Source: a virus
Taxonomy: Duplodnaviria > Heunggongvirae > Uroviricota > Caudoviricetes
DNA: 64,000 nt
IMG/VR virus record: IMGVR_UViG_3300021319_000003
Reading direction: 5' to 3' (one strand)
Made by a program: the position numbers and the translations under genes. Shown piece by piece: positions 2,136 through 38,837 of the stretch. Each line of letters starts with the position of its first letter. Within the stretch, counting starts at the first letter, position 1. The notes under the pieces were generated by a model, which worked only from the letters and a program-made list of their open reading frames with translations, had not been told where the DNA came from and ran no database searches.

Positions 2136-4364
2136 ATGAAAAAGTATGCGCCATTGCTGAAAAAAGAACACCATACTTTTCACAAACAGCCAGCCTTTGT
2201 TTACAACCAGGGCGGCCGCAATAAAGGCAGAGACGGAGAATTTTATTACATTTATTGTGAAAAATGCCATACATGGCACAAATTTTATTATATAAAAGAA
2301 ATAGAAGACATTCGCAGGTTTAAAGGCAGGAAATACTGCAATGACCGCATACAGTGTTGTAGGATTGCATGGGATATCCTTGAACATAGAGAGGATTTCC
2401 CAACAATGCAAGATATCCTCAATAAGTATGGTAAAGTTCTCAAAAAGCTTTTAAATATAAAGGAGCCGGACCTTAAGCCTGGAGAAAGAACAGATACTTG
2501 TTTCCCTCCTTTGACTCTCGAAGAGGTTTTTGATGGTTACCCAAAACAAAATCATTGGATAACCACCTTACTGAATGATTATGTTGCATGCATATCGGTA
2601 TCATCAATGACTGATGCATTCGATCCTTATGCCTATGATTCATTTAGTGAACCGATGGAGTCTGAGGTGCCCAAGAATCATTTTTACAGCCAGGTAGTCC
2701 CGGCATTGCAAAAGATAATTCGCTATTATGCTGACAAAAATGCGGTGAACACCCCAAAGGTCTCAAATCGCTTCTGGTGGAACGGGAACTATTTTAAGTG
2801 TCCTTCCTGTGGAGCACAAGGGCTTGCAAAGCATATGACAGGAAGCAGACCTAATATTTACCCTGTTAACGCAACTGTGTTCAGTATGGAAGATGGCTCG
2901 AAAACGGTTTCTTTTATCATGAGAGAAGAAATACCACTTAAAGTAAAAGTGACAAATAGTAAGGAATTTCAGGAAAAGCCATTGTATCGATATAGAGAAT
3001 TGCAGGGAAGAATCGTATTTAGCGCAGATGGTCACACCTATATCAAGGCTCCCGTAGAGCTTGGTACGAAAAAGGTAGTTGAAAATAATGATGCGCTTTG
3101 GTCATACAAAAGTAATATTGCAGATGTAACATATTCCAGTACTTCTAAGGGGCCATTTTACGAAGTTGCGATTAAAGCAATGGAGGAGGAAGGGGTCCTT
3201 CCGGCAAACTACGCGGCAATAAATCGATTCCGCAATACCAGTAAACAATTTACCGATTGCTTACAACAGCACCTTAGCGAAACTCGTTGTGGACGAAAAA
3301 TGTGTGAAAAGTTTGCACTGAATTTTTTGCGGCAGATTGATAAAAATGATGACGACCTCCAGATATTAAACAATATCTCGAAAAAGTATAAACTTCCCAA
3401 AAGCAAGAAGTTTAAAAAGGCGTTGATGGATGATGTATACATCACAACCAAAGCATTTAAAGCCTGGAAAGGTCTTGGTTTTAAGGACATAAATGCTTTC
3501 TATAAAATTTTGGAAAACGTAAATTTAAGGAATAGCATTTTCCATTATTATTTTTATAGCAGATATGAAATGGATGCCTTCAAAGGTTTTGTTCAGAAAT
3601 ATCTACGGGTTGGTTCCGAAATGTCTTTTGTGAAAGCACTGGGAAATACATTGGTTAATGATGCCATTCGTATACACCACGGTCTTCAGGATTCTGATAT
3701 TACGGAAGAAGACATTAGCCGGTGTTTTAAACCATCTATCAAAAAAACACATGATGCGCTTGTGGCTCTTGCAGATGTACGAAGGGAAATGGAAATTAAA
3801 ATCCAGGCACAGCAAAACATCGATGAGCAGGTACAGCTCTACAAGCAGGCAAAACAAGATGGTAAAAAGACCATGGCCGGTATTGCCATGAGAGAAATTG
3901 TTCAAAACAAACTTGAAAAAGACGGGAAGATTCTTTATACTGAAGAAGAAGTGCGTAAGTATGAAAAGGAGATTAACGGCTTCAAGTTTATTCTACCCAG
4001 AAAAACTGCGGATTTGGTTGCAGCAGGTAAAAAGTTGCACAATTGTGTTGGTCATTGCTATCTTAAACCTGCTTTGTGTAAAACTTCTACAATTGTATTG
4101 ATGGAGAAGGACGAAAACCTTTGTGGTTGTATCGAGATTCACAACAATACAATTCGACAGGCATACGGTCCGTGCAACAACAAGTTAAAGGATGACGTCA
4201 AGGCAGCTTTTGAAACCTGGAGAGTTTCCTGTGGAATAATGGAAAATCTTGTTGGTGCAGTTTTGCCAGCCGACGACGCCACTATCCCCAAAGACCTTGT
4301 AAGAAAGATTTGGGCGGAAATCGTAGAAGAGTATAACCTGCAAGAATACAAAGAGGCGGCATAG
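2136..4364 (+). CDS. large Cys-rich hypothetical protein (742 aa), possibly PcfJ-like
   Basis: Longest ORF in the window. Several CxxC/CxxH clusters and a conserved-looking C-terminal HNCVGHCYLKPALC...GPCNNKL segment. AGGAGA ribosome-binding site. Confidence 0.6.
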   Translation: MKKYAPLLKKEHHTFHKQPAFVYNQGGRNKGRDGEFYYIYCEKCHTWHKFYYIKEIEDIRRFKGRKYCNDRIQCCRIAWDILEHREDFPTMQDILNKYGKVLKKLLNIKEPDLKPGERTDTCFPPLTLEEVFDGYPKQNHWITTLLNDYVACISVSSMTDAFDPYAYDSFSEPMESEVPKNHFYSQVVPALQKIIRYYADKNAVNTPKVSNRFWWNGNYFKCPSCGAQGLAKHMTGSRPNIYPVNATVFSMEDGSKTVSFIMREEIPLKVKVTNSKEFQEKPLYRYRELQGRIVFSADGHTYIKAPVELGTKKVVENNDALWSYKSNIADVTYSSTSKGPFYEVAIKAMEEEGVLPANYAAINRFRNTSKQFTDCLQQHLSETRCGRKMCEKFALNFLRQIDKNDDDLQILNNISKKYKLPKSKKFKKALMDDVYITTKAFKAWKGLGFKDINAFYKILENVNLRNSIFHYYFYSRYEMDAFKGFVQKYLRVGSEMSFVKALGNTLVNDAIRIHHGLQDSDITEEDISRCFKPSIKKTHDALVALADVRREMEIKIQAQQNIDEQVQLYKQAKQDGKKTMAGIAMREIVQNKLEKDGKILYTEEEVRKYEKEINGFKFILPRKTADLVAAGKKLHNCVGHCYLKPALCKTSTIVLMEKDENLCGCIEIHNNTIRQAYGPCNNKLKDDVKAAFETWRVSCGIMENLVGAVLPADDATIPKDLVRKIWAEIVEEYNLQEYKEAA

Positions 4365-6848: not shown

Positions 6849-7169
6849 ATGGCAGTATTGTATCGTCCGCATCGCGGAGGACTTACAGAAGCAATGAAAG
6901 AAGTCCGTGCATTCGACACGGCGGAAGAAATCATAAAGTTTGAAGAAGAGCGCTGGAGCAAGATGTCTCCCGGTTGCAGAGCAGAAATCGGAGAAGCAGG
7001 CAGTACGATGGATAAACGCATTGGCTGGCTTACGAGACATGTCCTTATCAGAAATGATGCCAAGAACGAGAAATTTGTCGGCGGCATGTGCGATATCGAC
7101 ACGTACAAAGACTGCTCAAAAGAGGAAGCACTTGCTCAAACCAGAGCCATTTTTGAAAATTGGTTGTAG
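6849..7169 (+). CDS. hypothetical protein
   Basis: 106-aa ORF immediately following the upstream stop. Confidence 0.5.
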   Translation: MAVLYRPHRGGLTEAMKEVRAFDTAEEIIKFEEERWSKMSPGCRAEIGEAGSTMDKRIGWLTRHVLIRNDAKNEKFVGGMCDIDTYKDCSKEEALAQTRAIFENWL

Positions 7170-10433: not shown

Positions 10434-10755
10434 CGATGTATCTTATAAAGAACTTATTGAGAAAGTTCAGACTGAACTCAATACAACGCGCCCTCATAGC
10501 AGGGCGCTGGTTCTCCTTGAGGGTATTCGCAACAAAATAGATATTTCCACAGAAACGCATACGATTATCTGTATGCCTATTACGCGGACATTGCCTATGG
10601 CTTTATGTGGCCAAAGGGCAGACATCATCGCGGTCGAAAGAGCAGAGAACATCACAATAGAAAGTTTACTGAAGTTGGGTGCTATTTTGTGCGACCATGT
10701 AGAAGATACCGGAGTATTGATTTGTCCTGAAATGATGGGAGCGTTGTTACAATGA
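10411..10755 (+). CDS. hypothetical protein
   Basis: Internal ATG with strong GGAGGA ribosome-binding site preferred over the track start at 10390. Confidence 0.5.
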   Translation: MKIVNVPNDVSYKELIEKVQTELNTTRPHSRALVLLEGIRNKIDISTETHTIICMPITRTLPMALCGQRADIIAVERAENITIESLLKLGAILCDHVEDTGVLICPEMMGALLQ

Positions 10756-21636: not shown

Positions 21637-21711
21637 GCCGATGTAGCTCAATAGGGAGAGAGCACCGAAACTGTAACCTCGGCGACCCAGGTTCGAGTCC
21701 TGGCATTGGCT
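21637..21711 (+). tRNA. tRNA with atypical (9-10 nt) anticodon loop, isotype unresolved
   Basis: Acceptor GCCGATG/CATTGGC, D arm GCTC...GAGC, T arm CCAGG-TTCGAGT-CCTGG. The anticodon arm has only a 4-bp stem CCGA/TCGG with loop AACTGTAACC. Confidence 0.5.
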
Positions 21712-21829: not shown

Positions 21830-21862
21830 GCCCAACACCAGGTTAACGTCTGGTTAGAGGCT
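21830..21862 (+). repeat. bipartite hairpin, GTTAACGT-loop family copy 1
   Basis: Inner stem ACCAG/CTGGT around loop GTTAACGT, outer stem GCC/GGC. Covaries with the other five copies. Confidence 0.6.
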
Positions 21863-23944: not shown

Positions 23945-23953
23945 ATTTTGCGA

Positions 23954-23969
23954 CCGACACTAATGTCGG
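23954..23969. terminator. hairpin sharing the AAATTTTGCGACCGACA motif
   Basis: CCGACA-CTAA-TGTCGG hairpin directly after the stop of 23717-23944. Same 17-mer context as the terminator at 21165. Confidence 0.4.
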
Positions 23970-24296
23970 CCATAAAACATGCGTGACCTGACTGCTGGTT
24001 GCCAAGAGAACCATGCAGCGAATAAAGAATGCAGAGAGGCTGTACCGCTTCCTGCAAGCCTCCGGAGCGCCCAGAAAGAAACTTGGCCAGTGGTAGAAAG
24101 TCTCCAATGAGGACACCGTATGAACGCCTAAAGAAATACGGTACATCCGGCCCTAGAGGACAAGCCGGATAGGTGCAAGGCTTTCACGGTTCGACCGTGG
24201 GCAACGGCAAGGAAAAGCCGTTAAAACCCGGCACGAGAGGCTACACCGACGCTGAGTAGCCAAGCTGTTTGAGACGAGCAGCAATCAAAAAATACC

Positions 24297-24323
24297 TGCC
24301 TCCTTGGCAGGTATGATGCAATA
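24297..24323 (-). terminator. intrinsic terminator for a minus-strand transcript
   Basis: Perfect 8-bp stem TACCTGCC/GGCAGGTA followed, on the minus strand, by a T7 tract. Confidence 0.6.
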
Positions 24324-24361
24324 GATATAAAAATAGCCGGGAATATCGTTTTATGCAAGTA

Positions 24362-24451
24362 TTAGGACTTAAACGCTAAAACTACGAGTGCGACGGCATA
24401 CAGCGCATCGCGCAAAGAGTCGAAAAACTCCGGAGTCAAGGATAATTCCAT
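24362..24451 (-). CDS. small minus-strand peptide (29 aa, hydrophobic C-terminus)
   Basis: MELSLTPEFFDSLRDALYAVALVVLAFKS with AGAAAGGAAG ribosome-binding site 8 nt upstream. Intrinsic terminator lies 40 nt downstream. The only credible minus-strand gene in the phage region. Confidence 0.4.
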   Translation of the reverse strand: MELSLTPEFFDSLRDALYAVALVVLAFKS

Positions 24452-24806
24452 GGCTAAATCTTCCTTTCTAAGTTTTTTGGAAAAACTTCAGCGGGGCGGG
24501 CAGGTCGCGAGGTCTTTTGCAAGATTGCGAGCTGTTATCCCATACCTGGCCTACATGTATTGCTACCGTGCTTGCCCAGTAGCAAGGAATGCTCGGTGAG
24601 GAGCATTTGTTATGCATGTTTTGTGAAAGGTAGATAAAGTATTTTTACGATATTCTCAGCCGATGTCTATTGTATCATACGTGTCAAGGAAAAGACGATA
24701 AAACCCGATAAGGAAAAAAATCGTATAAATTCCCCCTGGCGGTAGAGGCAACGGTTGACCGCATATCCGAAGGCGGCAGGATGTAAAACAAGTCGCCCCC
24801 ATAATG

Positions 24807-24887
24807 AGGCAGTAGCTCAAATGGCTAGAGCGGACGAGAAAGCAAATGGGGCTTTCTTATGATGGTGGTTCGATTCCTCCCTGCCCC
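24807..24887 (+). other. degenerate tRNA-like element
   Basis: Acceptor-like GAGGCAG/CTGCCCC, D arm GCTC..GAGC, T-arm-like GGTGG-TTCGATT-CCTCC with a central mismatch, non-canonical anticodon arm. Confidence 0.3.
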
Positions 24888-24898
24888 TATATCATACA

Positions 24899-24969
24899 TC
24901 CCCAAAGCTCCTCCGGCAGAGCTCGTAAGGCTACGGCTTGCGGCGAAGGTTCGAATCCTTCTTGGGGGT
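24899..24969 (+). other. tRNA-like element with non-canonical anticodon region
   Basis: Acceptor TCCCCAA/TTGGGGG, D arm GCTC-CTCCGGCA-GAGC, T arm GAAGG-TTCGAAT-CCTTC. Central arm does not fold canonically. Confidence 0.3.
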
Positions 24970-24974
24970 ATCAT

Positions 24975-25029
24975 GCTCAAAGTCTGGGGGACACCGGCCG
25001 GTAGACAGGTTCGATTCCTGTATTGAGCA
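24975..25029 (+). other. mini tRNA-like minihelix (acceptor + T arm, ~55 nt)
   Basis: GCTCAAA...ATTGAGC acceptor and ACAGG-TTCGATT-CCTGT T arm with a single ~22-nt internal segment. No D or anticodon arm. Confidence 0.35.
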
Positions 25030-25149
25030 ACATTGTTCTGAGGGAAATGATCAATCTTTTCGGAACAAACATTGTGCCACAATGATTTCCAGACGTGGCA
25101 TCCCCCGCCTGAGGGATGGTAAAAGCATATCAGGCGCCTATAATGTTCC

Positions 25150-25221
25150 AACTCTGGGAGCTATGCTTATACTGGATAACCAATCCAGTACATAAGGCAG
25201 GTTCGATTCCTGCAAGGAGCG
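25150..25221 (+). other. tRNA-like 3' half / degenerate tRNA
   Basis: T arm GCAGG-TTCGATT-CCTGC plus acceptor-like 3' strand. 5' partner poorly matched. Confidence 0.25.
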
Positions 25222-26594
25222 CTTATCCAATCTCCACCGTGCGCAATTGGGCGCCGGAAATGTAAAAGGGTCGCTACCTTTACAGGCGATGTTAAATCCA
25301 TGATGCTGCCTTGGGAGCCGGGCATCAAGATGTTTCCCGATATTAAAATCGGGCACCAATTGGCTATCGGGTGTGTATAAGCTTAGGATAGCCCGTGAGG
25401 TCAAGCTTCCGCGACGATGAAGGTGTAAAGCACGTTAAACAGCTCCATGAATATTTCGCGGGTTTTCCGAAGTTCTAAGAATCGGGCGTTCAATGGCTGC
25501 GAGCGCGTAAATAGACAGCCAGCTTGAGTCACCGTGGACCCCGGATGTCCCGAAAGGAGCATGCCGGACAGGCGATAAGGCCGCGTTCCACGACACGAAA
25601 GCTTTCCTTGCCCGGCACGGTAGGTTAAACCGGGATAAGGGCTCCATTACCCTTGGCTGTAACCAGAATAGGCCAACCGCGTTTTTGGGTTCGCACTGCT
25701 GTGTGCAGGCGTCTCGATTACCCGGTGCCAACAGCCGAAGAGATGACCTTTATCGGAGCGTTCGCTATCGGACAATTGCTGAGGAAGTAAGAACTAAAGG
25801 CCACGGTTTTTAGCACTCAGAATAACGACGCGAAGGCATTCCTTTCGGTGGAGGTATACCGAAGAATATAAAACCTGGTCCACCCCGATAACGCCGTAAA
25901 GTACAAACGGTAGCTCGGTTCAGTGGTAGCAAGGTTGCGCCAAGCGTACCTGGATTACTTTTATCTGGATGAGCTAAAGTACACAGCTTATCAACTTAAG
26001 GATAATAACAGGCACGAAGGTGATTTAGCCTCCAAGGCGAAAAACGGCGTAGGGTAAGGGCACTACGTAATAAGCCGCCCGAGTCGGAAGAACCGACATA
26101 AAACCTGCATAAGATAACTGCTTGGCACAGGGTTAAGCAGGGAAACCGGTGGCTACGGCAGTAATCCGGTAAACGCCAAAGACATGTGGGCCTCCCCTGC
26201 GGGGTGAGTAAGTTACTTGGCGGCCGTAAAAGGAATTCATAAAAAAAAGCGAGAACTCGGTCATGGAGACTAACCCATCTCCAAATTCTCCAGATACTGC
26301 TTATCCTTTCGGGTATCATAGCTCATTCGCGACAAATGCGGAAGGAGTACCTTGTTCCGTATAGCGCAATGCGGAGCATGCTATTATTAGACCTCGTAAG
26401 CAAAGACAGGGACAGCAATCTCGTTCAAATCGGTAAAGCTTACCCCCCAGGTATCGGGCAGTTATTTGCCAAAGCTTGGATGGGTCAATCCGACACAGTG
26501 CTGCTGTATCTCGGGCACTAAAAACCTGCACTGGTACTTCATCATCTTTCATACCAGTAAAAGCGTTTAATAGCCTGACCCGAAAGGGTCATAT

Positions 26595-26992
26595 GGGGAC
26601 GAAATTGGTTTCGACAGGGTGTTGAAGCCGTAAGATTCGCAGACCGATGGTTATGACGTCTAACTCATTAACCGCTAAATTTAACTGACGAAGTTGAATA
26701 TCGTCTCGCTGCCTAATCTGCCGTAAGGTAGATTGGTTAGCCCCTATCGTATCACTAGCTGTGAGCAGGGCGGTAGGTTTCAAATAAACACAGCAAACGT
26801 CAGGAGGCCCGCTCGACGTAAACAACACGGGGAGTTTTCCTGCTTTCGAAAAAGCAGGTGGTGGAGGTGTAGACCATTACGCTTTGTTCGGCTGGTTACA
26901 CCCTAGAGAATGGCGCTCTTAAAAATGCCTATTGCGATAATGTCTTACAGGTGGATGCATTTTGGACACGGGTTCGACTCCCGTCGTCTCCA
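26595..26992 (+). ncRNA. ssrA: tmRNA (ssrA), tag reading frame ...DEVEYRLAA*
   Basis: 5' GGGGACGAAATTGGTTTCGACAGGG matches the tmRNA 5' consensus. 3' T arm ACGGG-TTCGACT-CCCGT and acceptor CGTCTCC pair with the 5' GGGGACG. Internal ORF GAC GAA GTT GAA TAT CGT CTC GCT GCC TAA ends in LAA like canonical tags. Confidence 0.75.
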
Positions 26993-26995
26993 CGG

Positions 26996-27023
26996 CCGCG
27001 ACAAGGTTAACGTCTTGAAGCGG
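26996..27023 (+). repeat. bipartite hairpin, GTTAACGT-loop family copy 3a
   Basis: Outer stem CCGC/GCGG, inner stem CAAG/CTTG, loop GTTAACGT. Begins 4 nt after the tmRNA 3' end. Confidence 0.65.
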
Positions 27024-27030
27024 CAGCCAC

Positions 27031-27062
27031 CGTTCCGATGAGGTTAACGTCTCAAAGGAACG
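27031..27062 (+). repeat. bipartite hairpin, GTTAACGT-loop family copy 3b
   Basis: Outer stem CGTTCC/GGAACG, inner stem TGAG/CTCA, loop GTTAACGT. Tandem with copy 3a. Confidence 0.65.
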
Positions 27063-27190
27063 AAAATTACGGAGCTTAAGAAATCAGCCATATCGGCTGA
27101 TTAAGGCAAATCTATTGAAATGTTTTCCGGAAGCTTGCACCGGATTATAGATTTGTCTTAATGAACTGATATGAGAAAGGGGAAAATATT

Positions 27191-27724
27191 TTGTTAGCTT
27201 TTGCGATGGATTACGAAGACGCGCTCCGTAAAACGGACCGTGCAAACTGGATGAACCCAAACACAAAGTGGTATTACGGTGGATGGGAAACAGAGATTGT
27301 TGTTGACAAGAATACCTGGAATAACATCCAGATGGTATCAGTCGATAAAGAAGACAATGTACATGGATATTTTAGCGTAGCTGTCGACGAAACGCTTAAC
27401 AGGCTGGCCAGTATGAGTGTAATCAACTATGGCCCCAAGTGTGACCTTGTTTTTTCAAAAGACTTTTACCAGTTCTTAAAATATCTATTCGTCGATAGAG
27501 GGTTTCACAAGTTGGAATGGACAGTGGTAATTGGGAACCCGATTGAGAAGATGTATGACCGTTTTTGTAAAAAAGCGGGCGGAAATATTATCGGCATTTC
27601 TCACGATTCGGCAATGTTACGTGACAGAAGACCGTATGACCAGAAACACTATGAGGTTTTTGATAGAGGCGTAATCGCCTATCTGGAAAGCAAAGGCATA
27701 AAAGATAAATGGAAAAGAAAGTAA
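27191..27724 (+). CDS. GNAT-like acetyltransferase fold protein (weak)
   Basis: 177 aa. C-terminal FHKLEWTVVIGNPIEKMYDRFCKKAGG resembles GNAT motif A. TTG start with GAAAGGGGA ribosome-binding site. Confidence 0.45.
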   Translation: MLAFAMDYEDALRKTDRANWMNPNTKWYYGGWETEIVVDKNTWNNIQMVSVDKEDNVHGYFSVAVDETLNRLASMSVINYGPKCDLVFSKDFYQFLKYLFVDRGFHKLEWTVVIGNPIEKMYDRFCKKAGGNIIGISHDSAMLRDRRPYDQKHYEVFDRGVIAYLESKGIKDKWKRK

Positions 27725-28266
27725 AGTTATACCTTCTCGGCGGTACTGCTGTCGTAGACTTTGTTTATTCAGCAACATCGCCAATTATCCACATATATTT
27801 TATAAGCCTGATAAGTTCCAGTGTTTTGGCCATGGCCAATATTCTGACCACCGCTTTGGCGGCAGGCGTAAACGCATCTATCCAGTCAGATAAACTCAAA
27901 GACTTTTATCGGCATCACTTCTTATGGATAATCGCAATAGATGTTGTCTGTTTCGCGCTTATCAGTTTTGAAGGCATATCAATCCCGGAAGTCAGATTCT
28001 TAGGCTTAGCTGTTTTAAATGCCGTATCATCAACTCTTTGGTTTACTGTGGTAAATGACGCAATCAATCATAAGATTGAGGGCGATAGATTGACAAAATG
28101 GAACAGCTTGTCTAAAACGGTTAATCTGACGGCGGCACTATTAGGCAGCGTAATCGCGATAATCTTTACGCAGATTAGTGTAGAGTATTGTATCGCGGCA
28201 CAATGCATAGCAAACTTATTCATGGGTGCCACAGACTGGTTAGCTTATAAGAGGATACGATATTAA
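27709..28266 (+). CDS. integral membrane protein (about 5 TM helices)
   Basis: 185-aa hydrophobic ORF overlapping the upstream stop. Confidence 0.5.
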   Translation: MEKKVKLYLLGGTAVVDFVYSATSPIIHIYFISLISSSVLAMANILTTALAAGVNASIQSDKLKDFYRHHFLWIIAIDVVCFALISFEGISIPEVRFLGLAVLNAVSSTLWFTVVNDAINHKIEGDRLTKWNSLSKTVNLTAALLGSVIAIIFTQISVEYCIAAQCIANLFMGATDWLAYKRIRY

Positions 28267-28387
28267 GAGGTGTAAGTATGACGGCAGCAGATAGTGTCTT
28301 TGCAGGCTTTATGTTAATTTTCGCCCTTGTAATGATTGGGGCAATAGCGATTGGAGCTGTATCTATGTTGAACGATGAAGATAGAAC

Positions 28388-28603
28388 ATGAGCAAGGTCA
28401 TTGATTTACAAGAGTACAAAGAAAAGAACAGTCCGCATGAAGTGGCCGAAGTAATCTGCCTGCATTGCATGCACCGTTGGTTGTCCGTGCACAAGCAGGG
28501 GGAATGGCTTGCTAAATGGGATTGTCCTAAATGCGGCAAAGTGGGTGGCATAATATATACCGGCCAGCCGTTGCCAGAGGATGGTGAGAGATATGCAGAC
28601 TAA
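28388..28603 (+). CDS. zinc-ribbon protein
   Basis: CLHCMHRW...CPKCGKVGG motifs. 71 aa. Confidence 0.5.
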   Translation: MSKVIDLQEYKEKNSPHEVAEVICLHCMHRWLSVHKQGEWLAKWDCPKCGKVGGIIYTGQPLPEDGERYAD

Positions 28604-28823
28604 ACTTCCGGAGCAAGTAATCGAAAGTATTAATGCAGGTATAGCTAAAGCGCATGAAGCGATTTCGGCTCACGACCGCATCCTTTCAATGAACAAATCT
28701 CATAAAAGATATTGGCAGATAAATAAAGCTTATCGACTTTTGCAGTCAAAAGCGGAAATTGTGCTGCCACACGAAATTCACCAAATCGTGACAACCATAA
28801 AATTGTCAAGGAAAAGACATTAA
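28581..28823 (+). CDS. hypothetical protein
   Basis: 80-aa ORF overlapping the upstream gene. Confidence 0.45.
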   Translation: MVRDMQTKLPEQVIESINAGIAKAHEAISAHDRILSMNKSHKRYWQINKAYRLLQSKAEIVLPHEIHQIVTTIKLSRKRH

Positions 28824-29267
28824 AACCCATCACAGCAGGAGCGTCTGTGAATATGTCGAGCTCGCACCCAGGAGTCAATAGCCGTGTTAGAGTCCGGCGA
28901 CGTAGAGGTCAAATACTTAGTCATAACAGTAGTGGCACCCCGGTAAGGGGGAGGTGTACGGTGCAAGTCCGTACGGACATTGACAAGAGAGCTTCAGAAC
29001 CTGCAGTAAAGCAGTAAAAATCCTCCGCCCACGTTTGCAACGGGTTTAGGGCGTAAAAGATGTAAGCCAGTCCGGCCGAACGCAATAACCTGCCGATGTG
29101 CACTTCAAGCAGGAAGGGTGCTGCCGCCTTAAGATAAGAAAAGCACCTCACGCGGGAACTTCCGTCGTTCCGCCCGCGTAATTTATTAAAAAGGGGATAA
29201 AAATGAGTTTTCAAGATTGGCTTGATGACGAAGAATTATAAAGTCGGTTATCGCATCTAATATCATG

Positions 29268-29319
29268 TACTCTGGTCTGGTGGCCTTTTGGAAGAAGCAG
29301 GTTCGATTCCTGCAGAGTA
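29268..29319 (+). other. mini tRNA-like minihelix
   Basis: Acceptor TACTCTG/CAGAGTA and T arm CAGG-TTCGATT-CCTG with a ~22-nt internal segment beginning GTCTGG (also found in the 24975 element). Confidence 0.35.
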
Positions 29320-29885
29320 GATACCTCTCTTGGTTGCGACAAGAGCGTAATTGGACAGGCCTGAATTCACCTGTCGGAGCTGAACGAGAAACAGCAAAAA
29401 CACCTGCGCCAACAGGTGATTGGCGTTGCCGCGCCGCGTATTTACTGCTATGCGTAAGAAAGCAGCGTAAACCTGATTGCAGGACTGATCATCCTGAAAA
29501 ATGACTGTACGAAAATCAGTTACCGAAATGACAGGGTTAGATTTCGGCGGATACCATGACAGACCAAGCATCATGGGATGCCGTGACAAGGCAAAGCCGG
29601 TTGTCAAGGACAAGACATAAACCCCAAGACATCACTTAGCTGATGATGCTCTGTCGGGAAGAGTCATATACTAACCAAAAAGCGGGCGGCTATATGCCCC
29701 AGGATACTGCATTAACAGTCGGGTATCAACGCAATTATATAATAAAGGGGCCATCAGTAGTCCACTGCAAAGGACGAGTCTGTAGAATGACGGGTTGGCA
29801 TCCTCCGTTTCGAGCTTCGTAAAAGTATCACGGGAGTTGCGGTAGGATTTGCAGCTACCGCAGCAACATTCCCGTTTATATCATG

Positions 29886-29915
29886 TCCCCAACGAGGTTA
29901 GCGTCTCAGCGGGGA
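29886..29915 (+). repeat. bipartite hairpin, GTTAGCGT-loop variant (family copy 4)
   Basis: Outer stem TCCCC/GGGGA, inner stem GAG/CTC, loop GTTAGCGT. Confidence 0.55.
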
Positions 29916-30177
29916 GGAATCCGTTTTAGTTTACCCTGAGGAATAGGCAATGATGAGTGCGCAATTATCTAACTGAAACAAAGGGTAAATGAGAGCCTGC
30001 AAGGCAACCAGGTGCGGAAATGGTATGCAGAAAACCATAACCTGCCGGAGACTTGACTGGCCGTTATAGATGTCAAGCGCAGAATACCGCGATAGGTGTA
30101 TCGAGGGAGTAGGCGAACTCCCGACGTTAGCAAAAAAACTCACTAGAGACGGCAAAATGCCATGTCGTCTCGATTAA

Positions 30178-30219
30178 GGACCCCTAGCTCAGTTGGTTAG
30201 AAGCCCTGAGGGGTCCACC
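30178..30219 (+). other. tRNA-derived hairpin: acceptor stem GGACCCC/GGGGTCC closed over a D-arm-like loop
   Basis: GGACCCC-TAGCTCAGTTGGTTAGAAGCCCTGA-GGGGTCC-ACC. Its 3' 17 nt, GYCC-GAGGGG-TCCACC, recur at 31048-31064. Confidence 0.4.
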
Positions 30220-30223
30220 TTAC

Positions 30224-30302
30224 CCAGGCGTAGCTAAGTTGGTGGTAGCGGCGGCCTTATAAGCCGTGTCTTACGTGGGTTCAAGTCCCACCGCCTGGAC
30301 CA
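30224..30302 (+). tRNA. tRNA-Ile (anticodon UAU, reads AUA)
   Basis: Acceptor CCAGGCG/CGCCTGG, anticodon stem GCGGC/GCCGT with loop CTTATAA, T arm GTGGG-TTCAAGT-CCCAC, encoded CCA. Confidence 0.75.
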
Positions 30303-30384
30303 TTAATTAATTTGTGAGCACTTTTTGAACTAACATCATGTTTTAAGTTCACACAATAGGTAATGTTGCCTACGGTGATATGAA

Positions 30385-31014
30385 TTGAAATATGTATGTA
30401 AAGTTTGTGGCAATGAATATGAATATGGCCGCAGTAAAGGACACTCAAAAGACATTTGTAACACTTGCAGACAAAACTATAGAAAAAAGCTTTTGAAACA
30501 AAGAGCTGTTAAGTACAAAGGCAGGAAATGTCAGGTATGCGGATACGATAAATGCGAAAATGCATTGGTATTCCATCATCTCGACCCCCAGCAAAAGAAT
30601 TTTGGCATTGGACAAAAATACAATCTCGGCTGGCATCGCTTAAAAAAGGAATTAGACAAATGTGTTCTTCTTTGCGCTAACTGCCATGCCGAAGAACATG
30701 CTAAAGGACAGCACAAACTTAATGAATACGAAAAATGGATTGTTCCACTAAAAGAAAGAGTTCGTATAGCAGAAGAAAAAGTTGCAAAAAAAGCGATGGA
30801 AAAAGAAAAATTCTGTAACCATTATGATGTCGATGAAGCGGTCTTAGGAAATATACGTCCCTGGGCAAGAAAGACGGTGCGTCCAACGAAAGAAGAATTC
30901 TTCAAAGAGTATGAAGAAGTTGGTCGCAACAAATCTGAGATGGGACGGCGCTATGGCGTTTCTGGTAAGGCCATAGCAAAATGGATAAAGTCGTACGAAA
31001 AGTATGGCGCATAA
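30385..31014 (+). CDS. HNH homing-type endonuclease with C-terminal HTH
   Basis: HNH core FHHLDP...NLGW...LLCANCH and N-terminal Cys pairs. C-terminal RRYGVSGKAIAKWI is HTH-like. Confidence 0.75.
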   Translation: MKYVCKVCGNEYEYGRSKGHSKDICNTCRQNYRKKLLKQRAVKYKGRKCQVCGYDKCENALVFHHLDPQQKNFGIGQKYNLGWHRLKKELDKCVLLCANCHAEEHAKGQHKLNEYEKWIVPLKERVRIAEEKVAKKAMEKEKFCNHYDVDEAVLGNIRPWARKTVRPTKEEFFKEYEEVGRNKSEMGRRYGVSGKAIAKWIKSYEKYGA

Positions 31015-31020
31015 ACAAAA

Positions 31021-31064
31021 TCAGTGGACGCGGGTCCTCGGTTCAAGTCCGAGGGGGTCCACCA
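31021..31064 (+). other. tRNA 3' half (variable region + T arm + acceptor 3' strand + CCA)
   Basis: GGGTC-CTCGG-TTCAAGT-CCGAG-GGGGTCC-ACCA. The acceptor 3' strand is complementary to GGACCCC at 30178. Confidence 0.4.
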
Positions 31065-31303
31065 TATGGAATAAGCAAGGCGAAAGCCTTGTAAGTTCCT
31101 CTCCTTTTTCTAAGAAACAAACAAAATAGCGAGCGCTCTGAACTTCGGTTCAGGCGCCCGTAGAGCTCTTAATAAAGATTGAGAGTTGTACGGGCGAAAG
31201 CCTTTTTAGCTATTGTTCAAGAAACAACTGCGCTCAGACAGTATAACATTCTGGGTAGTGCTTCGGTGTGCTGTGCACGAAAGGAATACAGCCTTCCACT
31301 TAT

Positions 31304-31361
31304 GAGGGGTCGTTGAGAGGCGGGCGCAATGCGTCGCAGGTTCGAACCCTGCCGTCCCTCA
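31304..31361 (+). other. mini tRNA-like minihelix
   Basis: Acceptor GAGGGGTC/CGTCCCTC and T arm GCAGG-TTCGAAC-CCTGC with only about 24 nt between them. Confidence 0.35.
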
Positions 31362-31868: not shown

Positions 31869-32025
31869 GGCAGTGTCGGCTATATTAAGTTTTCTGGTTG
31901 CAAACAGGACTCTTAACGAAATGGTTGCGCCGATATAAAACAGAACATGCCTATAACACTGGTTGCAAACAGTTTATAGGTGATGCTGGTTGCGGGTTCG
32001 ATTCCCGCCACTGCCCCTTATTATG

Positions 32026-32038
32026 GCTTGGTAGTCTA
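32026..32038 (+). other. 5' fragment of split tRNA-Cys (acceptor GGCTTGG + TA + GTCT)
   Basis: GGCTTGG is the exact complement of the CCAAGCC acceptor 3' strand at 33691-33697. GTCT can pair with AGGC at 33647-33650 as the D stem. Confidence 0.5.
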
Positions 32039-32039
32039 G

Positions 32040-32342
32040 TCAATAACCCCCGTCTAGCGCTTTGCGCTTGAAGGCGGGAGCTTGCGAAAGCAAGCTCTTA
32101 CCGACTAGCCTAAGTCCGGTATTAGACAAGTGCTTGAAAAAGCCTCGGACTACGTTGTTTTCGTTATCACACCCGTGGGTGTTTATCCTAGCTCCCCGCT
32201 CTGTGTAGGCTCTGTAAAAGTTCTGAGAGGAGGAACGGTCAACCTAAGGACGGCCCGCCATTGCGGGCAAGCGATTACAACATTGGCGAAGGGTAGATTT
32301 ACTCTAATTTGAAGCTTCAGCTTCGGAAAGGAGGTACACGTT
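32040..32342 (+). ncRNA. putative IscB omega RNA
   Basis: ORF-free, hairpin-rich region (for example GCGCTTTGCGC and GGGAGCTTGCGAAAGCAAGCTCTT) directly 5' of iscB, which is where IscB guide RNAs are encoded. Confidence 0.45.
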
Positions 32343-33611
32343 ATGTTCGTGTACGTTATCAATAAAAACGGACAACCGTTAATGCCTTGTAAACCTCAGA
32401 AAGCTAGAAAGCTGCTGAGGGAAAACAAAGCTATGGTTGTAAAATATGAGCCGTTTACAATTAAGTTGAAATATGGCTCAGCTGGCTATAAACAGCCAAT
32501 AACTCTTGGTATTGATGCTGGCTCTGTACATATCGGAGCCTCAGCATCAACAGAGAAACAAGAATTATATGCTTCAGAAACGATTATGCGCTCTGGTGAT
32601 GGCAAAGCATCTATTGTAAGGCTTTTGGCTAAACGGTTAGAACTTCGTCACAGTCGCCGGAACCGCAAGACACGGTATCGCAAAGTAAGATTTTTGAATC
32701 GGGTTCGCCGTAAACACAAAGGTTGGCTTGCGCCAAGCGTGGAGAACAAAATCAATGTTCATCTAAAGCTTGTGGCGGATATCCATAAGATTCTTCCGGT
32801 AACGAAAGTTATTGTAGAAGTAGCTCAATTCGATATTCAGAAAATCAAGAATCCTGATATTTCTGGGGTCGAATATCAGCAGGGAGAACAGTTTGGATGG
32901 GCGAATGTTCGTGAATACGTATTATTCCGTGATGGTCATCAATGTCAGTGCTGTAAAGGGAGTTCTGGCGACCCAATACTCAATGTACATCATATTGAAA
33001 GTCGTATGACTGGAGGCAATGCGCCGAATAACCTGATAACGCTTTGTGAAACCTGCCATCAGGGATATCATCAAGGCAATATCTCTTTACCGAAGACAAT
33101 ACATCGTGGCATGAGATTCCGAGACGCGACTTTCATGGGAATTATGCGTTGGGCTTTTTACAACAAGCTTAAAGAGCAATATCCTGATGTGCATTTAACA
33201 TACGGCTACATCACGAAAAACACTCGCATCAAAAATGGTATTACAAAAACACATTCGGCAGACGCCTACTGTATTGCGGGCAATATCAATGCAGAACGGC
33301 TCAACTACGAATATCTTCGTAAACAAATTCGTCGGCATAACCGTAAGTTGCATCGCGAAGTGCCAGCAAAAGGCGGCGTTCGTAAGCGAGCACAAGCCGG
33401 ACATATTGTTCGGGGGTTCTGCTTAAATGACACAGTGTTTTATCAAAAGCAATGCTGGTTTGTGAGAGGTATGAGAGTCAAAGGTTCTTTTGTCTTAAAG
33501 CACCTAGACGGAACTAAGGCTGAAGTAGCACCATCAAAAATAACATTTTTGATGCATAATAATTCGTATTTAGTCGAAAGGAGAGAAGCGGCGCTCACCT
33601 CCACTCTGTAG
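32343..33611 (+). CDS. iscB: IscB OMEGA nuclease (RuvC-HNH, Cas9-ancestor family)
   Basis: N-terminal PLMP motif (NGQPLMPCKP), RuvC-I ITLGIDAGSVHIGAS, arginine-rich bridge RRNRKTRYRKVRFLNRVRRK, HNH HHIESRMTGGNAPNNLITLCETCH, and C-terminal RuvC-III (HSADAYCIAG). 422 aa. Confidence 0.8.
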   Translation: MFVYVINKNGQPLMPCKPQKARKLLRENKAMVVKYEPFTIKLKYGSAGYKQPITLGIDAGSVHIGASASTEKQELYASETIMRSGDGKASIVRLLAKRLELRHSRRNRKTRYRKVRFLNRVRRKHKGWLAPSVENKINVHLKLVADIHKILPVTKVIVEVAQFDIQKIKNPDISGVEYQQGEQFGWANVREYVLFRDGHQCQCCKGSSGDPILNVHHIESRMTGGNAPNNLITLCETCHQGYHQGNISLPKTIHRGMRFRDATFMGIMRWAFYNKLKEQYPDVHLTYGYITKNTRIKNGITKTHSADAYCIAGNINAERLNYEYLRKQIRRHNRKLHREVPAKGGVRKRAQAGHIVRGFCLNDTVFYQKQCWFVRGMRVKGSFVLKHLDGTKAEVAPSKITFLMHNNSYLVERREAALTSTL

Positions 33612-33639
33612 AGGGTGGAGTCCCCCGCGCCGCGTTTTA

Positions 33640-33701
33640 AGTGGTTAGGCAACGGTCTGCAAAACCGTTTCACGCCGGTTCGATCCCGGCCCAAGCCTCC
33701 A
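33640..33701 (+). tRNA. tRNA-Cys (anticodon GCA), 3' portion of a gene split by the IscB element
   Basis: Anticodon stem ACGGT/ACCGT with loop CTGCAAA, T arm GCCGG-TTCGATC-CCGGC, acceptor 3' CCAAGCC + T + CCA. The 5' acceptor half lies at 32026. Confidence 0.55.
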
Positions 33702-33966: not shown

Positions 33967-34063
33967 GGGAAACGTCAGGTGGCGGAAAAGAGCATTCGGG
34001 TTCGATTCCCGACGCCCTGCGGGGTCCGTGGTGGTCAGCCTGGTTCGAGTCCAGGGTTTCCCT
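33967..34063 (+). tRNA. tRNA-Ser-like (anticodon CGA), 97 nt with long variable arm
   Basis: Acceptor GGGAAAC/GTTTCCC, anticodon arm TCGGG-TTCGATT-CCCGA, long GC-rich variable arm, T arm CCTGG-TTCGAGT-CCAGG. No encoded CCA. Confidence 0.5.
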
Positions 34064-34085
34064 TTATAAGGAGTTCCTACATTGG

Positions 34086-34140
34086 ACAGTAAGAGCGGGT
34101 TTCGATTCCCGACACGCCGACGGGCGTCCTGGTGGTAATA
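34086..34140 (+). other. pseudo-tRNA fragment (partial duplicate of the tRNA-Ser(CGA)-like anticodon/variable region)
   Basis: GAGCGGGTTTCGATTCCCGACACGCCGACGGGCGTCCTGGTGG aligns with GAGCATTCGGGTTCGATTCCCGACGCCCTGCGGGGTCCGTGGTGG at 33990-34034. Confidence 0.3.
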
Positions 34141-34336
34141 AGTGTTGGTGCGTACAGGCTTCAATTCCGGATGCGAAGTCTGTGCAATTCCAACAGCTCC
34201 AAGTGCGCAAACACTATAAATATGCCTGCTACATGCGGCTGCAGGTATCTTCTTCGGGCGGAGACAATAAATAAACGCCCGAAAGGTCCCGTCAGTGTAG
34301 GGGAACCGTCTGAATACTCATTGCCGCATTTATCAT

Positions 34337-34610: not shown

Positions 34611-35492
34611 TTGGAAAACAAAGGTCTTGGTTTGGTAGGAATCTTAGGCGCCATGGCACTGTTTGCGGTGATTGCGTTTCTTTGCGTAACACGCATCGGT
34701 CCGGGCTATGCAGGAGTCATCTATAACATGGATGGCGGCATTGAAAGCGAAACGCTCGGTCAGGGTTTCCATATGGTAGCACCGTGGAAACACGTGAGCG
34801 AATATCCGATATCCACGGAAACCGTGTACTACACGAAAAATTCTGTAGATGGCGACGATAAGGACAAGAAAACCGATAAGTCCGTCAATGTAAACACACG
34901 GGATGGCAAACAGGTCAACGTTTCGGTAACGTATGCTTACCATATGGATCCGGAGAAGCTTCCGACCGTTTTTGCTAAGTTCCGCGGCCAGGACATTAAA
35001 TCGATTGAATCAGGGTACATGAAGAATGCCATGTACGAAGCGCTCAATAATATCACCTCCCAGTATTCTTTGATGGAACTGGTAGGCGATAAGCGTCCTG
35101 AAATCAACCAGAAGATTTACGAAACGTTCAAGGCTGACCTTGAAGATTGCGGTATTGTAATTGAGACTTTCAATCTGTCTGACGTGGTGCCAGATGAGGC
35201 TACGGCAACGGCAATCCAGAACGTTGTAAATGCCCAGAATGCACTCCAGCAGGCCAAGATTGAAAAACAGCAGGCCGAAGTTGAAGCTGAAAAGGCCCGT
35301 GTGGCAGCAAAGGGTAAAGCTGATGCTGCATTGATTGAAGCGGAAGGCCAGGCACAGGCTAACGCCAAGTTGCAACAGTCTTTGACGCCCGGCGTACTCC
35401 AGCAGAATGCAATCTCTAAGTGGGACGGAAAGCTCCCTCAGATTAGCGGTCAGAACGGCGGTTTCATCCTTGGAGCCGACTTCTTGAAGTAA
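34611..35492 (+). CDS. SPFH / band-7 (prohibitin-stomatin-HflK/C) family membrane protein
   Basis: N-terminal TM helix followed by an SPFH-like core (GYAGVIYNMDGG...) and a C-terminal Ala/Gln-rich coiled coil. AGAGGAGGAATTATATTTTG ribosome-binding site. Confidence 0.8.
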   Translation: MENKGLGLVGILGAMALFAVIAFLCVTRIGPGYAGVIYNMDGGIESETLGQGFHMVAPWKHVSEYPISTETVYYTKNSVDGDDKDKKTDKSVNVNTRDGKQVNVSVTYAYHMDPEKLPTVFAKFRGQDIKSIESGYMKNAMYEALNNITSQYSLMELVGDKRPEINQKIYETFKADLEDCGIVIETFNLSDVVPDEATATAIQNVVNAQNALQQAKIEKQQAEVEAEKARVAAKGKADAALIEAEGQAQANAKLQQSLTPGVLQQNAISKWDGKLPQISGQNGGFILGADFLK

Positions 35493-38081: not shown

Positions 38082-38837
38082 GTGTTTGATGTCGGAGACA
38101 TTGTTGATGGCCACGCCATTTGCCTGAAAGCGTTGGTAGGTAGCCATAATTATAACTTGAACACACCAAAGTCCGATAAAGACTACAAGTATTTCGTGTG
38201 GCCAACGTTTGAGGACCTTTATCGCAATCAGGAATATCATAAAGAAGTTGTCACCAATACGGAAGATTATACCATCCATGATATTCGCAAGCTTCCGAGT
38301 TTACTTTGGAAAGCGAATCTAAACTTTATTGAAATCCTGTATTCCAGAGAATTGAGCGGCAATTCTACCCTGATTGATTATTTAACAGAGAATAGGGAAA
38401 AGCTGGCAACAATGAATCTGCCTCGCTTATATGCAGCATCGATGGGAACGTCTATTCAAAAGGAAAAGCTGATGTTGATGGACTCGCCCGCTAGGCATGA
38501 GGCAATTCAAACGTATGGATACGACCCTAAGAGCGCCCATCACGCTATACGTGTAGTGGACTTTCTTACGAGGTATTATAAAACTCGATATTTTGCAAGC
38601 GCTTTTTGGTACGAACAAGATAGTATGTGCCGAGATGCATTACTTTGGTTCAAAGAAGGGGAATTTTCACTGAAAACGGTAAAGTTTCATTTGGATAATT
38701 ACCGCAATCACGCAAAGGAAGTGGAATCCTTTTTTGTGGACCAAAAACCAAACCCCCAGCCGCTTGAAGATTTAAATAAATTCATAAAAGCGGCAATACA
38801 CGAAAGAATAATAAACACAAAAAGAGGCGATGCGTAG
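38082..38837 (+). CDS. Pol-beta-type nucleotidyltransferase fold protein
   Basis: GSHNYNLNTPKSDKDYKYFV fits the GS-x(9-13)-[DE]x[DE] nucleotidyltransferase signature. 251 aa. GTG start with GGAGG ribosome-binding site. Confidence 0.55.
   Translation: MFDVGDIVDGHAICLKALVGSHNYNLNTPKSDKDYKYFVWPTFEDLYRNQEYHKEVVTNTEDYTIHDIRKLPSLLWKANLNFIEILYSRELSGNSTLIDYLTENREKLATMNLPRLYAASMGTSIQKEKLMLMDSPARHEAIQTYGYDPKSAHHAIRVVDFLTRYYKTRYFASAFWYEQDSMCRDALLWFKEGEFSLKTVKFHLDNYRNHAKEVESFFVDQKPNPQPLEDLNKFIKAAIHERIINTKRGDA

Follow-up and report, generated by a model that had tools for sequence, protein, structure and literature searches.

Conserved anticodon-less tRNA-like elements in the RNA island of a jumbo phage lineage

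In a 64,000-nt stretch of a Caudoviricetes genome (IMG/VR record IMGVR_UViG_3300021319_000003; hereafter the window), three very short transfer RNA (tRNA)-like elements, the minis E1, E2 and E3, lie within an 'RNA island' of approximately 21.6–34.4 kb in which every RNA unit is on the + strand. Sequence comparison indicates that these elements are real and conserved and that decay does not explain them. The reading we prefer, at a probability of roughly 0.5, is that they are functional, non-decoding tRNA mimics that serve as two-sided processing punctuation or scaffolds in a polycistronic RNA island; the minis are most likely handles for tRNA-processing enzymes. The island also contains 13 tRNAs called by ARAGORN, a transfer-messenger RNA (tmRNA), a HEARO RNA, long conserved stretches free of open reading frames (ORFs) and a few small ORFs. 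It belongs to a lineage of gut and rumen phages, and the window itself is part of a 69-kb contig from a gut metagenome (ENA ERZ27247041, k141_133600). Other contigs are referred to by L numbers. Close relatives were gathered via the SPFH/prohibitin gene (34611–35492), whose protein had at least 326 homologs; as the contigs of these relatives span 196–334 kb, the lineage is one of jumbo phages.

Anatomy and conservation of the minis

E1 (24975–25029, + strand) has 55 nt in the order GCTCAAA, a 23-nt interior, ACAGG-TTCGATT-CCTGT and ATTGAGC-A, which provide a 6-bp acceptor stem with an A.A mismatch, a D-like CTGG/CCGG arm, a 5-bp T arm and a discriminator A. E2 (29267–29320, + strand; 52–54 nt) consists of (G)TACTCT, a 23-nt interior (GGTCTGGTGGCCTTTTGGAAGAA), GCAGG-TTCGATT-CCTGC and AGAGTA(G). 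E3 (31304–31361, + strand; 58 nt) consists of GAGGGGT, 25 nt, GCAGG-TTCGAAC-CCTGC, a single C and GTCCCTC-A, and folds as a miniature cloverleaf in which, beside the 7-bp acceptor stem and the T arm, there are two 4-bp hairpins, the first with a GAGA loop and the second with a loop of 5–6 nt. None of the three encodes CCA. In each, acceptor stem and T arm form a stack of 12 layers, the T loop is canonical and a D-loop-like segment contains GG; this corresponds to the canonical top half of a tRNA (7-bp acceptor on a 5-bp T stem, T loop UUCRANY, G53-C61) with two deviations: pair 7:66 of E1 is mismatched, and the junction of E3 holds one extra C. An anticodon arm with a 5-bp stem, a 7-nt loop, U33 and a purine at position 37 is absent from E1 and E2, and E3 has only a 4-bp stem with a 5–6-nt loop in its place.

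Direct reading of the sequence thus bore out the 6–7-bp acceptor stems and canonical T arms described in a first-pass annotation of this DNA. A single segment does replace the D and anticodon arms, with a measured length of 22–25 nt rather than the approximately 22 nt given there, and the term 'armless' holds for the anticodon arm but not for the D region, of which a loop-like segment is kept. A GTCTGG string is indeed shared by E1 (24982–24987) and E2 (29275–29280), but it fits the usual D-loop consensus YYGG (pyrimidines, then G18 G19), so that a remnant or mimic of a D loop is the better reading than a motif peculiar to the two elements. The claim that the stems covary between copies did not stand: E1, E2 and E3 have unrelated stems and interiors and so do not represent copies of a single element, and compensatory changes are found instead between the orthologs of each element.

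The first-pass annotation had also named three longer elements, here A, B and D, and had raised the doubt that standard finders might assign all these regions to ordinary tRNAs misfolded by eye. ARAGORN made no call in the window for any of the six (E1, E2, E3, A, B and D), and among them Rfam called only A (24806–24888). The best Rfam match of tmRNA type for E2 was beta_tmRNA, at 16.9 bits against a threshold of 84, and a tag ORF would not fit into elements as short as the minis. Coding alternatives were rejected as well: an ATG at −2 to +1 opens frames of just 4–17 codons in E1 and E3, and the 79-codon frame over E2 (ORF 29265–29504) has ATA for ATG in L109, so E2 is not coding. For the interior of E1, the minimum-free-energy fold from RNAfold (GUCU/GGAC and ACC/GGU hairpins) was not supported across orthologs; the D-like CTGG/CCGG stem suits them better, yet shows no covariation.

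The intact acceptor stem and T arm would also be expected of unusual genuine decoding tRNAs comparable to the armless tRNAs of mitochondria, and relatives with tta and cta suppressor tRNAs show signs of recoding. We consider this extremely improbable, since E1, E2 and E3 lack an anticodon stem or a 7-nt anticodon loop and B carries a tetraloop where the anticodon should be. Armless mitochondrial tRNAs moreover follow the opposite pattern, losing the D and/or T arm and keeping the anticodon arm.

To judge conservation, the four-fold degenerate sites of neighbouring genes, compared between relatives and the window, were used as a neutral benchmark. Identity at these sites was 51–62% for ORF 27709–28266 inside the island and 38–58% for the SPFH gene in element-carrying relatives (29% in L111, the most distant one), compared with 84–95% for E1, 94–96% for E2 and 86–93% for E3 against their orthologs (binomial P values of 1e-6 to 1e-11 given the local neutral identity). 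E1, E2 and E3 are thus under purifying selection. In E3, whose orthologs lie in L101, L103, L105, L106 and L054, all 100 cells of 20 pairs in five sequences are paired; T-stem pair 35:49 changes from C-G to U-A in a compensatory manner, one G-C becomes G-U, and all other changes fall in loops. E1 has compensatory changes in acceptor pair 6:67 (A-U/U-A) and T-stem pair 51:63 (A-U/G-C), and 89.6% of its cells are paired, compared with 35–44% when the partners are slid. The orthologs of E2 (L109 7124–7174 and L110 4869–4919) show three differences, all outside the stems, namely a 5'-terminal unpaired G->A and, in the interior, GGA->GC-A with a 1-nt deletion. E2 is carried by a 488-nt segment (29251–29738) that is missing from L054, L101, L103, L105 and L106.

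Two alleles of E1 that differ only by a small hairpin occur in the lineage. The mini allele (54–55 nt) is found in L105, L054, L052, L050, L107/L108 and L116, and a 72-nt allele, whose extra 17 nt form a hairpin with a 4-bp stem and a 5-nt loop at the position of the anticodon arm, in L101, L103, L106 and L109. The long form is probably ancestral and the mini a deletion derivative, because the more distant L032 (= L111) has, behind the leader hairpin of E1, a 79-nt element that also contains a small hairpin.

This history fits the alternative explanation that the minis are non-functional relics, that is, tRNA genes that an internal deletion, or recombination between the near-identical T arms of a crowded tRNA array, has damaged and that are caught before erosion. 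The island is highly mosaic, with modules gained, lost and re-joined at element ends (L105 and L106 encode an identical SPFH protein and carry different E1 alleles), the T arms of E2 and D are identical, the L107 copy of E1 has a weakened T stem, and true wrecks of a tRNA-Met (by an insertion with an HNH-like ORF and a tRNA-Ile) and of a tRNA-Cys (by an IscB element) lie nearby. We nevertheless regard relics as quite unlikely, and the sequence comparisons disfavour a neutral origin: the minis are 84–95% identical where synonymous sites reach 38–62%, substitutions in the stems are avoided or compensated, and the same minis are retained in six or seven diverged genomes, where their neighbours differ. 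The suspicion voiced in the first-pass annotation that the recurrence of these elements means more than decay was well founded in this respect, as they have orthologs in relatives, are conserved far above synonymous identity and change in ways that respect the stems; they are neither absent from nor divergent in close relatives.

The wreck of the tRNA-Met(CAT) gene illustrates what real decay in the island looks like, and the minis appear different from it. Its 5' fragment (30179–30222, + strand) matches the first 20 nt of the intact gene in L105 (7890–7966), and its 3' fragment (31021–31064, + strand; fold z = −2.8) keeps the T arm, the 3' strand of the acceptor stem and ACCA, its last 35 nt being identical (35/35) to L105 and L106, where the gene is intact. 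Positions ~21–43 are replaced in the window by a segment of approximately 800 nt with a tRNA-Ile(tat) (30224–30302) and a 209-aa ORF (30385–31014) that has a cysteine-rich, HNH-like N-terminal part and, in Pfam, only a weak sub-threshold match to HTH_28 (residues 174–208). ARAGORN found no other tRNA-Met in the window, and each leftover half folds into a small helix of its own. The tRNA-Met wreck therefore keeps its CCA and matches an intact ortholog, whereas the nine mimics of the window described below have neither a CCA nor an identifiable canonical parent.

Sequence searches beyond the relatives found no such parent either. The region had no match among 50,697 deposited phage genomes (megablast and blastn), and the 3' halves of E1 and E3, used as patterns, had none among 185,579 GTDB species genomes, so that no bacterial parent tRNA is identifiable. 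In IMG/VR, the pattern GTTTCCCGATATYAAA gave 45 chance matches and no relatives. The pattern GTCTGG-N14-22-CAGGTTCGATTCCTG was rejected as a signature: nearly all of its 25 matches fell in ordinary tRNAs whose anticodon stem has GTCTGG as its 5' strand (GUCUGG with CCAGA), and one unrelated contig (L017) carries a similar mini. Homologs of ORF 27191–27724 (58–60% identity) lie in ordinary coding surroundings without an RNA island, and only L050 was useful among them.

A wider class of tRNA-like elements without CCA

A scan of the window and the relatives for T arms with a flanking acceptor helix placed the minis in a larger class. The T-loop motif GGTTCRANYCC occurs 17 times in the window, always on the + strand and between 21.6 and 34.1 kb (0.38 in shuffled sequences), and nine of the 17 T loops lie outside plain canonical tRNAs. 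All 11 canonical tRNAs encode CCA (N73-CCA) and none of the nine non-canonical elements (K, A, B, E1, D, E2, E3, G and H) does, a split with a probability of approximately 6e-6 under random assignment (Fisher's exact test, our own arithmetic). The same dichotomy is seen in L101, L105, L106, L107, L054, L109 and L116, and two further families, J and H2, occur in relatives and are absent from the window. Canonical and non-canonical units share a leader, TAT(C/T/A)AT, directly 5' of G(+1), with T always at −1.

Each of the three longer elements of the first-pass annotation has an ortholog in related jumbo phages. Element A (24806–24888, + strand; 82 nt) has normal acceptor, D and T arms; its 'anticodon' stem is 8 bp long and ends in an invariant AAAUGG(G) loop (AAAUGGG, in which position 33 is A). 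It scores 33.9 bits in the Rfam tRNA model (threshold 29), with a 22-nt stretch in the anticodon region where the model expects 13. It occurs in nine further loci (L101, L103, L105, L054, L053, L106, L107, L109 and L116), where the loop AAAUGG never varies, two pairs of the 8-bp stem are compensated (L107) and a U.U mismatch of the T stem becomes C-G (L106, L109 and L116). Element B (24899–24969, + strand) is a 71-nt cloverleaf in which a C(UACG)G tetraloop replaces the anticodon loop; it occurs in seven further loci, its identity to orthologs is 94–97%, and in the consensus fold of six orthologs all five variable positions keep pairing. Element D was real, but its limits are better drawn at 25145–25221 (+ strand; 77 nt) than at the 25150–25221 first given, with a weak 5-bp acceptor stem and an inner 8-bp hairpin (fold z = −2.6). 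It occurs in a single relative, L053, where the inner arm is replaced and the 5' end and the last 27 nt are conserved.

The remaining elements lie outside the stretch covered by the first-pass annotation. K (21637–21710, + strand; ortholog at L054 4306–4379) is labelled 'tRNA-???' by ARAGORN, with a 2-base anticodon. G (31869–32016, + strand; fold z = −3.2), with orthologs at L105 8273–8394 and in L106, joins an acceptor stem (GGCAGTG/CACTGCC) and a T arm around an insert of approximately 110 nt with two GUUGCAAA-loop hairpins. H (33967–34063, + strand; 96 nt) has an acceptor stem, a terminal T arm and an inner helix that encloses a second, T-arm-like hairpin with a UUCGAUU loop and a pyrimidine at 'position 37'; ARAGORN labels it tRNA-Ser(cga), which it is not. 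Its 104-nt paralog H2 has the same architecture, H-type loci (H/H2) lying at L101 8546–8649, L054 11880–11984 and L107 8962–9066, and six of 23 pairs covary when H and H2 are aligned. Since substitutions in E3, E1, B and H/H2 keep or restore pairing, selection appears to act at the RNA level.

Throughout the class, the acceptor stem and the T arm persist, as does a D region with GG, and the anticodon domain varies freely: it is absent (E1 mini and E2), a short hairpin (E3 and long E1), capped by UACG (B) or GCAA (J), lengthened to 8 bp (A), exchanged for a different hairpin between orthologs (D) or for a second hairpin of T-arm type (H), or replaced by ~110 nt (G). The anticodon domain thus seems to be dispensable or deliberately capped, and these elements cannot decode. 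Selection has kept the top half of the tRNA, whose recognition by RNase P and RNase Z, by the CCA-adding enzyme and by other readers is established. The minis are the smallest members of a set of at least ten non-decoding tRNA-like families in the lineage. Standard annotation misses or mislabels such elements, as for H and K, so that tRNA counts of phages and inferences of recoding can be distorted.

Outside the lineage, the unrelated small viral contig L017 (IMGVR_UViG_3300006810_010474) holds two tRNA-like elements for which ARAGORN made no call. The one at 3029–3160 is a tRNA-like scaffold (GAACGAG...CTCGTTC) with an insert of approximately 80 nt, and the other, at approximately 3250–3307, is a mini of approximately 58 nt without anticodon arm, with the same D-loop-like string GTCTGGTGGC as E2. 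Because this unrelated contig has a comparable mini, the anticodon-less design may be more widespread, beyond the lineage.

Proposed processing punctuation, possible decoys and known tRNA-like RNAs

The positions of the minis bear on what they might do. A, B and E1 stand in tandem with spacers of 5–12 nt, an array found in at least six genomes. Downstream of E1, five different neighbours occur among the genomes, each beginning exactly after the discriminator base; in L054, L050, L052 and L116 E1 lies directly 5' of a long non-coding RNA (ncRNA) whose counterpart in the window (25320–26590) is followed by the tmRNA. E3 directly abuts a conserved ncRNA (31065–31303), with tRNA-Gln 4 nt downstream. 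This ncRNA always ends '...CCACTTAT|G', and what follows it is E3 in six genomes, the unrelated CCA-less H2 in L107 and tRNA-Gln in L109. E2 starts 6–24 nt (24 nt in the window) past the stop codon of a conserved micro-ORF. The micro-ORF has a good ribosome-binding site, starts M-S-x-x-D-W-L-D-D-E-E... and has E2 or the next ncRNA on one side and, in relatives, an ochre-suppressor-like tRNA on the other; its predicted products are MSFQDWLDDEEL* in the window (29205–29243), MSYPDWLDDEEDKIDFFV* in L054 (approximately 10662–10718) and MSPLDWLDDEEDKIGYHI* in L109 (approximately 7060–7116).

Consensus scans gave no clear sign that the island is divided into short transcription units: sigma-70-like sites were not enriched in it (19 versus 21.5 expected), and of the terminator-like hairpins (30 versus 13.6 in shuffled sequences) about two thirds lie on the opposite strand, several of those on the + strand being tRNA arms. 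In the processing reading, the island would be transcribed as long polycistronic RNAs, RNase P would cut at the conserved U(−1)|G(+1) junction 5' of each tRNA-shaped unit, and RNase Z would cut directly 3' of the discriminator base, since the mimics encode no CCA. In Bacillus subtilis, RNase Z cuts tRNA precursors that lack CCA and is inhibited by the CCA sequence. Each mimic would thereby set the 3' end of the upstream RNA and the 5' end of the downstream RNA, the neighbouring structured RNAs would be released and capped, and the mimic itself would be released as a stable RNA of 52–58 nt; the larger members of the class would be the same scaffold with 'cargo' in place of the anticodon arm. 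Transcription, both cleavages and any function of the released RNA are steps that we infer. A role as processing substrate is favoured on indirect grounds: the elements encode no CCA, have the leader of true tRNAs and stand at the borders of other RNAs. If RNase P and RNase Z do cut them, phage RNA islands would follow a mitochondrion-like 'tRNA punctuation' logic, and the elements would be natural equivalents of the engineered tRNA scaffold.

Several observations weigh against this reading. The covariation score of E1 was reached by 18 of 500 shuffles, with few sequences available; its pair 7:66 never pairs, and the L107 copy has two mismatches in the T stem. E2 has only one distinct ortholog sequence, the covariation score of A was not above that of shuffles, and few sequences underlie the covariation statistics in general. 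The whole non-coding island is ~80–90% conserved, so the identity of the minis indicates constraint and does not point to a function, and the synonymous benchmark assumes that the RNA genes and the neighbouring ORFs share a history, in an island that is mosaic. Three elements in tandem (A-B-E1) also exceed what punctuation alone needs, which suggests that the released RNAs each have a role of their own.

One such role would be that of trans-acting decoys or sponges, in which excised minis, possibly with CCA added, occupy a host or phage reader of the tRNA top half, such as a defence toxin that modifies or cuts acceptor ends, the CCA-adding enzyme, EF-Tu or a tRNA-modifying enzyme, so that real tRNAs are protected or translation is retuned. 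We see this as possible and on balance doubtful. The minis keep exactly the top half and the elbow, three different mimics in tandem in at least six genomes are more than processing requires, the loop of A is invariant, the phage has genes related to tRNA and RNA repair (Tpt1/KptA at 58152–58691 and a weak RlaP match at 38082–38837), and relatives carry suppressor tRNAs and many tRNAs. Together, these points fit the conflict over tRNAs described for phage tRNAs (PMC10264068). On the other hand, the best-known anti-phage tRNA nucleases cut anticodon loops, which the minis do not have, the readers named above are only candidate partners, and the computation does not separate decoys from the processing model, with which a decoy role is compatible. 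As decoys, the elements would add an RNA component to the arms race over tRNAs. A further reading, which we rate as rather unlikely, starts from the lineage's repertoire of at least ten families of CCA-less mimics on one shared 'top-half' scaffold, from 'empty' minis of 52–58 nt to scaffolds with cargo hairpins: matured by host tRNA enzymes, they would be more than processing marks and would titrate host readers of the acceptor and elbow in trans. If true, this titration, for example of acceptor-end-modifying defence toxins or of the machinery for CCA addition and quality control, would give the conflict between phage and host over tRNAs a new layer based on RNA.

The coincidence of rearrangement breakpoints with element ends could also mean that the elements work at the DNA level, as recombination or integration sites or cassette joints whose T-arm-like repeats are used as DNA, with an incidental RNA fold, and 3' halves of tRNAs are classical attachment sites. 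We find this very unlikely, as RNA helices are preserved by compensatory changes, G.U pairs are tolerated in the + strand sense only, all elements are on the transcribed strand together with the tRNAs, and no integrase was seen among the window ORFs examined.

Mimicry of the tRNA top half is already well known from minihelices, tmRNA, mascRNA and plant t-elements, and processing of the kind we favour for the minis has parallels. The t-elements of plant mitochondria are tRNA-like structures that set the 5' and 3' ends of mRNAs (PMC1920247). Like the phage elements, they are non-decoding tRNA-like folds in longer transcripts, beside non-tRNA genes and without encoded CCA; this combination, with a non-tRNA RNA as neighbour, also describes mascRNA, and the elements of the island show it, provided that they are embedded in a longer transcript, as we infer. 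Cleavage by RNase P and RNase Z is presumed for the t-elements and proposed here for the phage elements. The t-elements are also organellar, eukaryotic and usually a degenerate cloverleaf, whereas the phage elements form arrays with true tRNAs and have an anticodon arm that is deleted or capped. The tRNA-like RNAs mascRNA and menRNA, of approximately 60 nt and with a reduced anticodon arm, lie directly behind a large structured ncRNA, at the 3' ends of MALAT1 and NEAT1; RNase P makes the 3' end of the ncRNA, and RNase Z and the CCA-adding enzyme finish the small RNA (PMC8457004, PMC9777231). The position of E3 directly 3' of the ncRNA at 31065–31303 has this layout, but mascRNA and menRNA are vertebrate nuclear RNAs without sequence relation to the phage elements, which matched neither mascRNA-menRNA nor any other tRNA-like family in Rfam at E<=10. 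The TMERs of murine gammaherpesvirus 68 are tRNA-like/pre-miRNA genes (PMC4337559) and are likewise encoded by a virus: as tRNA-like modules that are not aminoacylated, they recruit tRNA-processing enzymes of the host, which release the adjacent RNAs. Unlike the phage elements, they have complete cloverleafs, are transcribed by RNA polymerase III in a eukaryotic host and are followed by miRNA hairpins.

In structure, the minis share with the tRNA-like domain of tmRNA (RF00023) an acceptor stem, a T arm, a reduced D loop and the lack of an anticodon arm, a design also shown by the tmRNA of the window, but they have no mRNA-like domain, pseudoknots or tag ORF. Synthetic minihelices of acceptor stem and T arm are sufficient substrates for end-processing enzymes and have been used with RNase P, the CCA-adding enzyme and AlaRS; these are laboratory constructs, whereas the minis are conserved genes. 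The bacterial Y-RNA-like YrlA, an ncRNA associated with bacteria and phages, mimics the acceptor/T/D elbow of tRNA (PMC4201824). In YrlA, a helix that binds Ro60 and is built from the two termini takes the place of the anticodon stem, whereas the termini of the minis form the acceptor stem; at E<=10 the elements had no Rfam match to YrlA or Y RNA, and no Ro-binding helix was found.

A survey of viral metagenomes listed candidate 'tRNA or tRNA-like' structured RNAs (PMC10690425), which overlap ARAGORN tRNA calls and are not described as anticodon-less minis. The tRNA cluster of phage T4 contains two stable non-tRNA RNAs. Both sets resemble the minis in being phage-encoded, tRNA-associated small RNAs that standard finders do not reliably call. 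The functionally closest systems are t-elements, mascRNA and TMER modules, and the structurally closest the tRNA-like domain of tmRNA and synthetic minihelices. Given the lack of Rfam matches and of sequence relation, the minis appear to belong to none of these families, and our literature search turned up no report of phage tRNA-like genes that are conserved, stand alone and lack the anticodon.

Other features of the island and the window

The tmRNA (26595–26995, + strand; 90.7 bits in Rfam; tag DEVEYRLAA) is the only true tmRNA. Its 3' end in the window, ...CGTCTCC-ACGG, encodes no CCA, and the tmRNAs of L101, L105, L106, L107 and L032 end in ACCA. Suppressor tRNAs with the anticodon tta (ochre) or cta (amber; labelled 'Pyl' by ARAGORN) are found in relatives, at L101 6994–7086, L105 7206–7298 and 7515–7591, L054 11796–11872 and L116 9049–9125, and not in the window; their presence suggests stop-codon recoding in part of the lineage.

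The tRNA-Cys(GCA) gene is split by an IscB element of approximately 1.6 kb within 32026–33700. Its first 16 nt (GGCTTGGTAGTCTAGT) lie at 32026–32041, and it resumes at approximately 33641 as GTGGTTAGGCAACGG...CCAAGCC-TCCA; between the two parts are the HEARO RNA (32039–32302; 83.7 bits) and the IscB ORF (32343–33611; RRXRR and HNH). The tRNA gene is intact in L101, L105, L106 and L109, and an IscB gene lies approximately 1.7 kb downstream of the SPFH gene in L101, L103 and the shorter contigs L102 and L104, which suggests recent transposition of IscB inside the phage.

Phage functions encoded in the window include an NAD-dependent ligase, PcfJ, a DNA methylase, a dCMP deaminase, Lar and the IscB with its HEARO RNA. 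Pfam scans of 30 window ORFs found no CCA-adding enzyme, RNase Z or RNase P protein; the sole RNA-related matches were the Tpt1/KptA RNA 2'-phosphotransferase (163 bits), an enzyme of tRNA splicing and repair, and the sub-threshold RlaP. An ISL3-family transposase (60805–61866, minus strand) lies near the Tpt1/KptA gene.

ORF-free conserved stretches span 23945–24805, 25222–26594, 28824–29204, 29320–30178, 31065–31303 and 34063–34336. They are 75–90% conserved in relatives, contain many GNRA- and UUCG-capped hairpins, had no Rfam match at E<=10 and may be new large structured RNAs. The largest, of approximately 1.37 kb, lies just upstream of the tmRNA and includes a T-loop-like hairpin (26396–26443) that is kept in L101, L105 and L106. 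Hairpins with the loop GUUAACGU (or GUUAGCGU) occur on the + strand at 21842, 22200, 27006, 27043 and 29897, with a variant at approximately 31465; these five exact matches (1.1 expected) are all inside the island, have covarying stems of 4–5 bp (ccagG..Cctgg, ccggG..Cccgg, caagG..Ccttg, tgagG..Cctca) and could be a binding site for a phage RNA-binding protein. A motif of approximately 25 nt, (T)GTCAAGGAAAAGAC(G/A)NTAAAACC, is likewise restricted to the + strand of the island (24208, 24685, 28807 and 29605), ahead of the A-B-E1 array and the long ncRNAs; it is also present in L052, L054, L107 and L032, and could be either a promoter specific to the phage or the beginning (5' end) of a repeated RNA.

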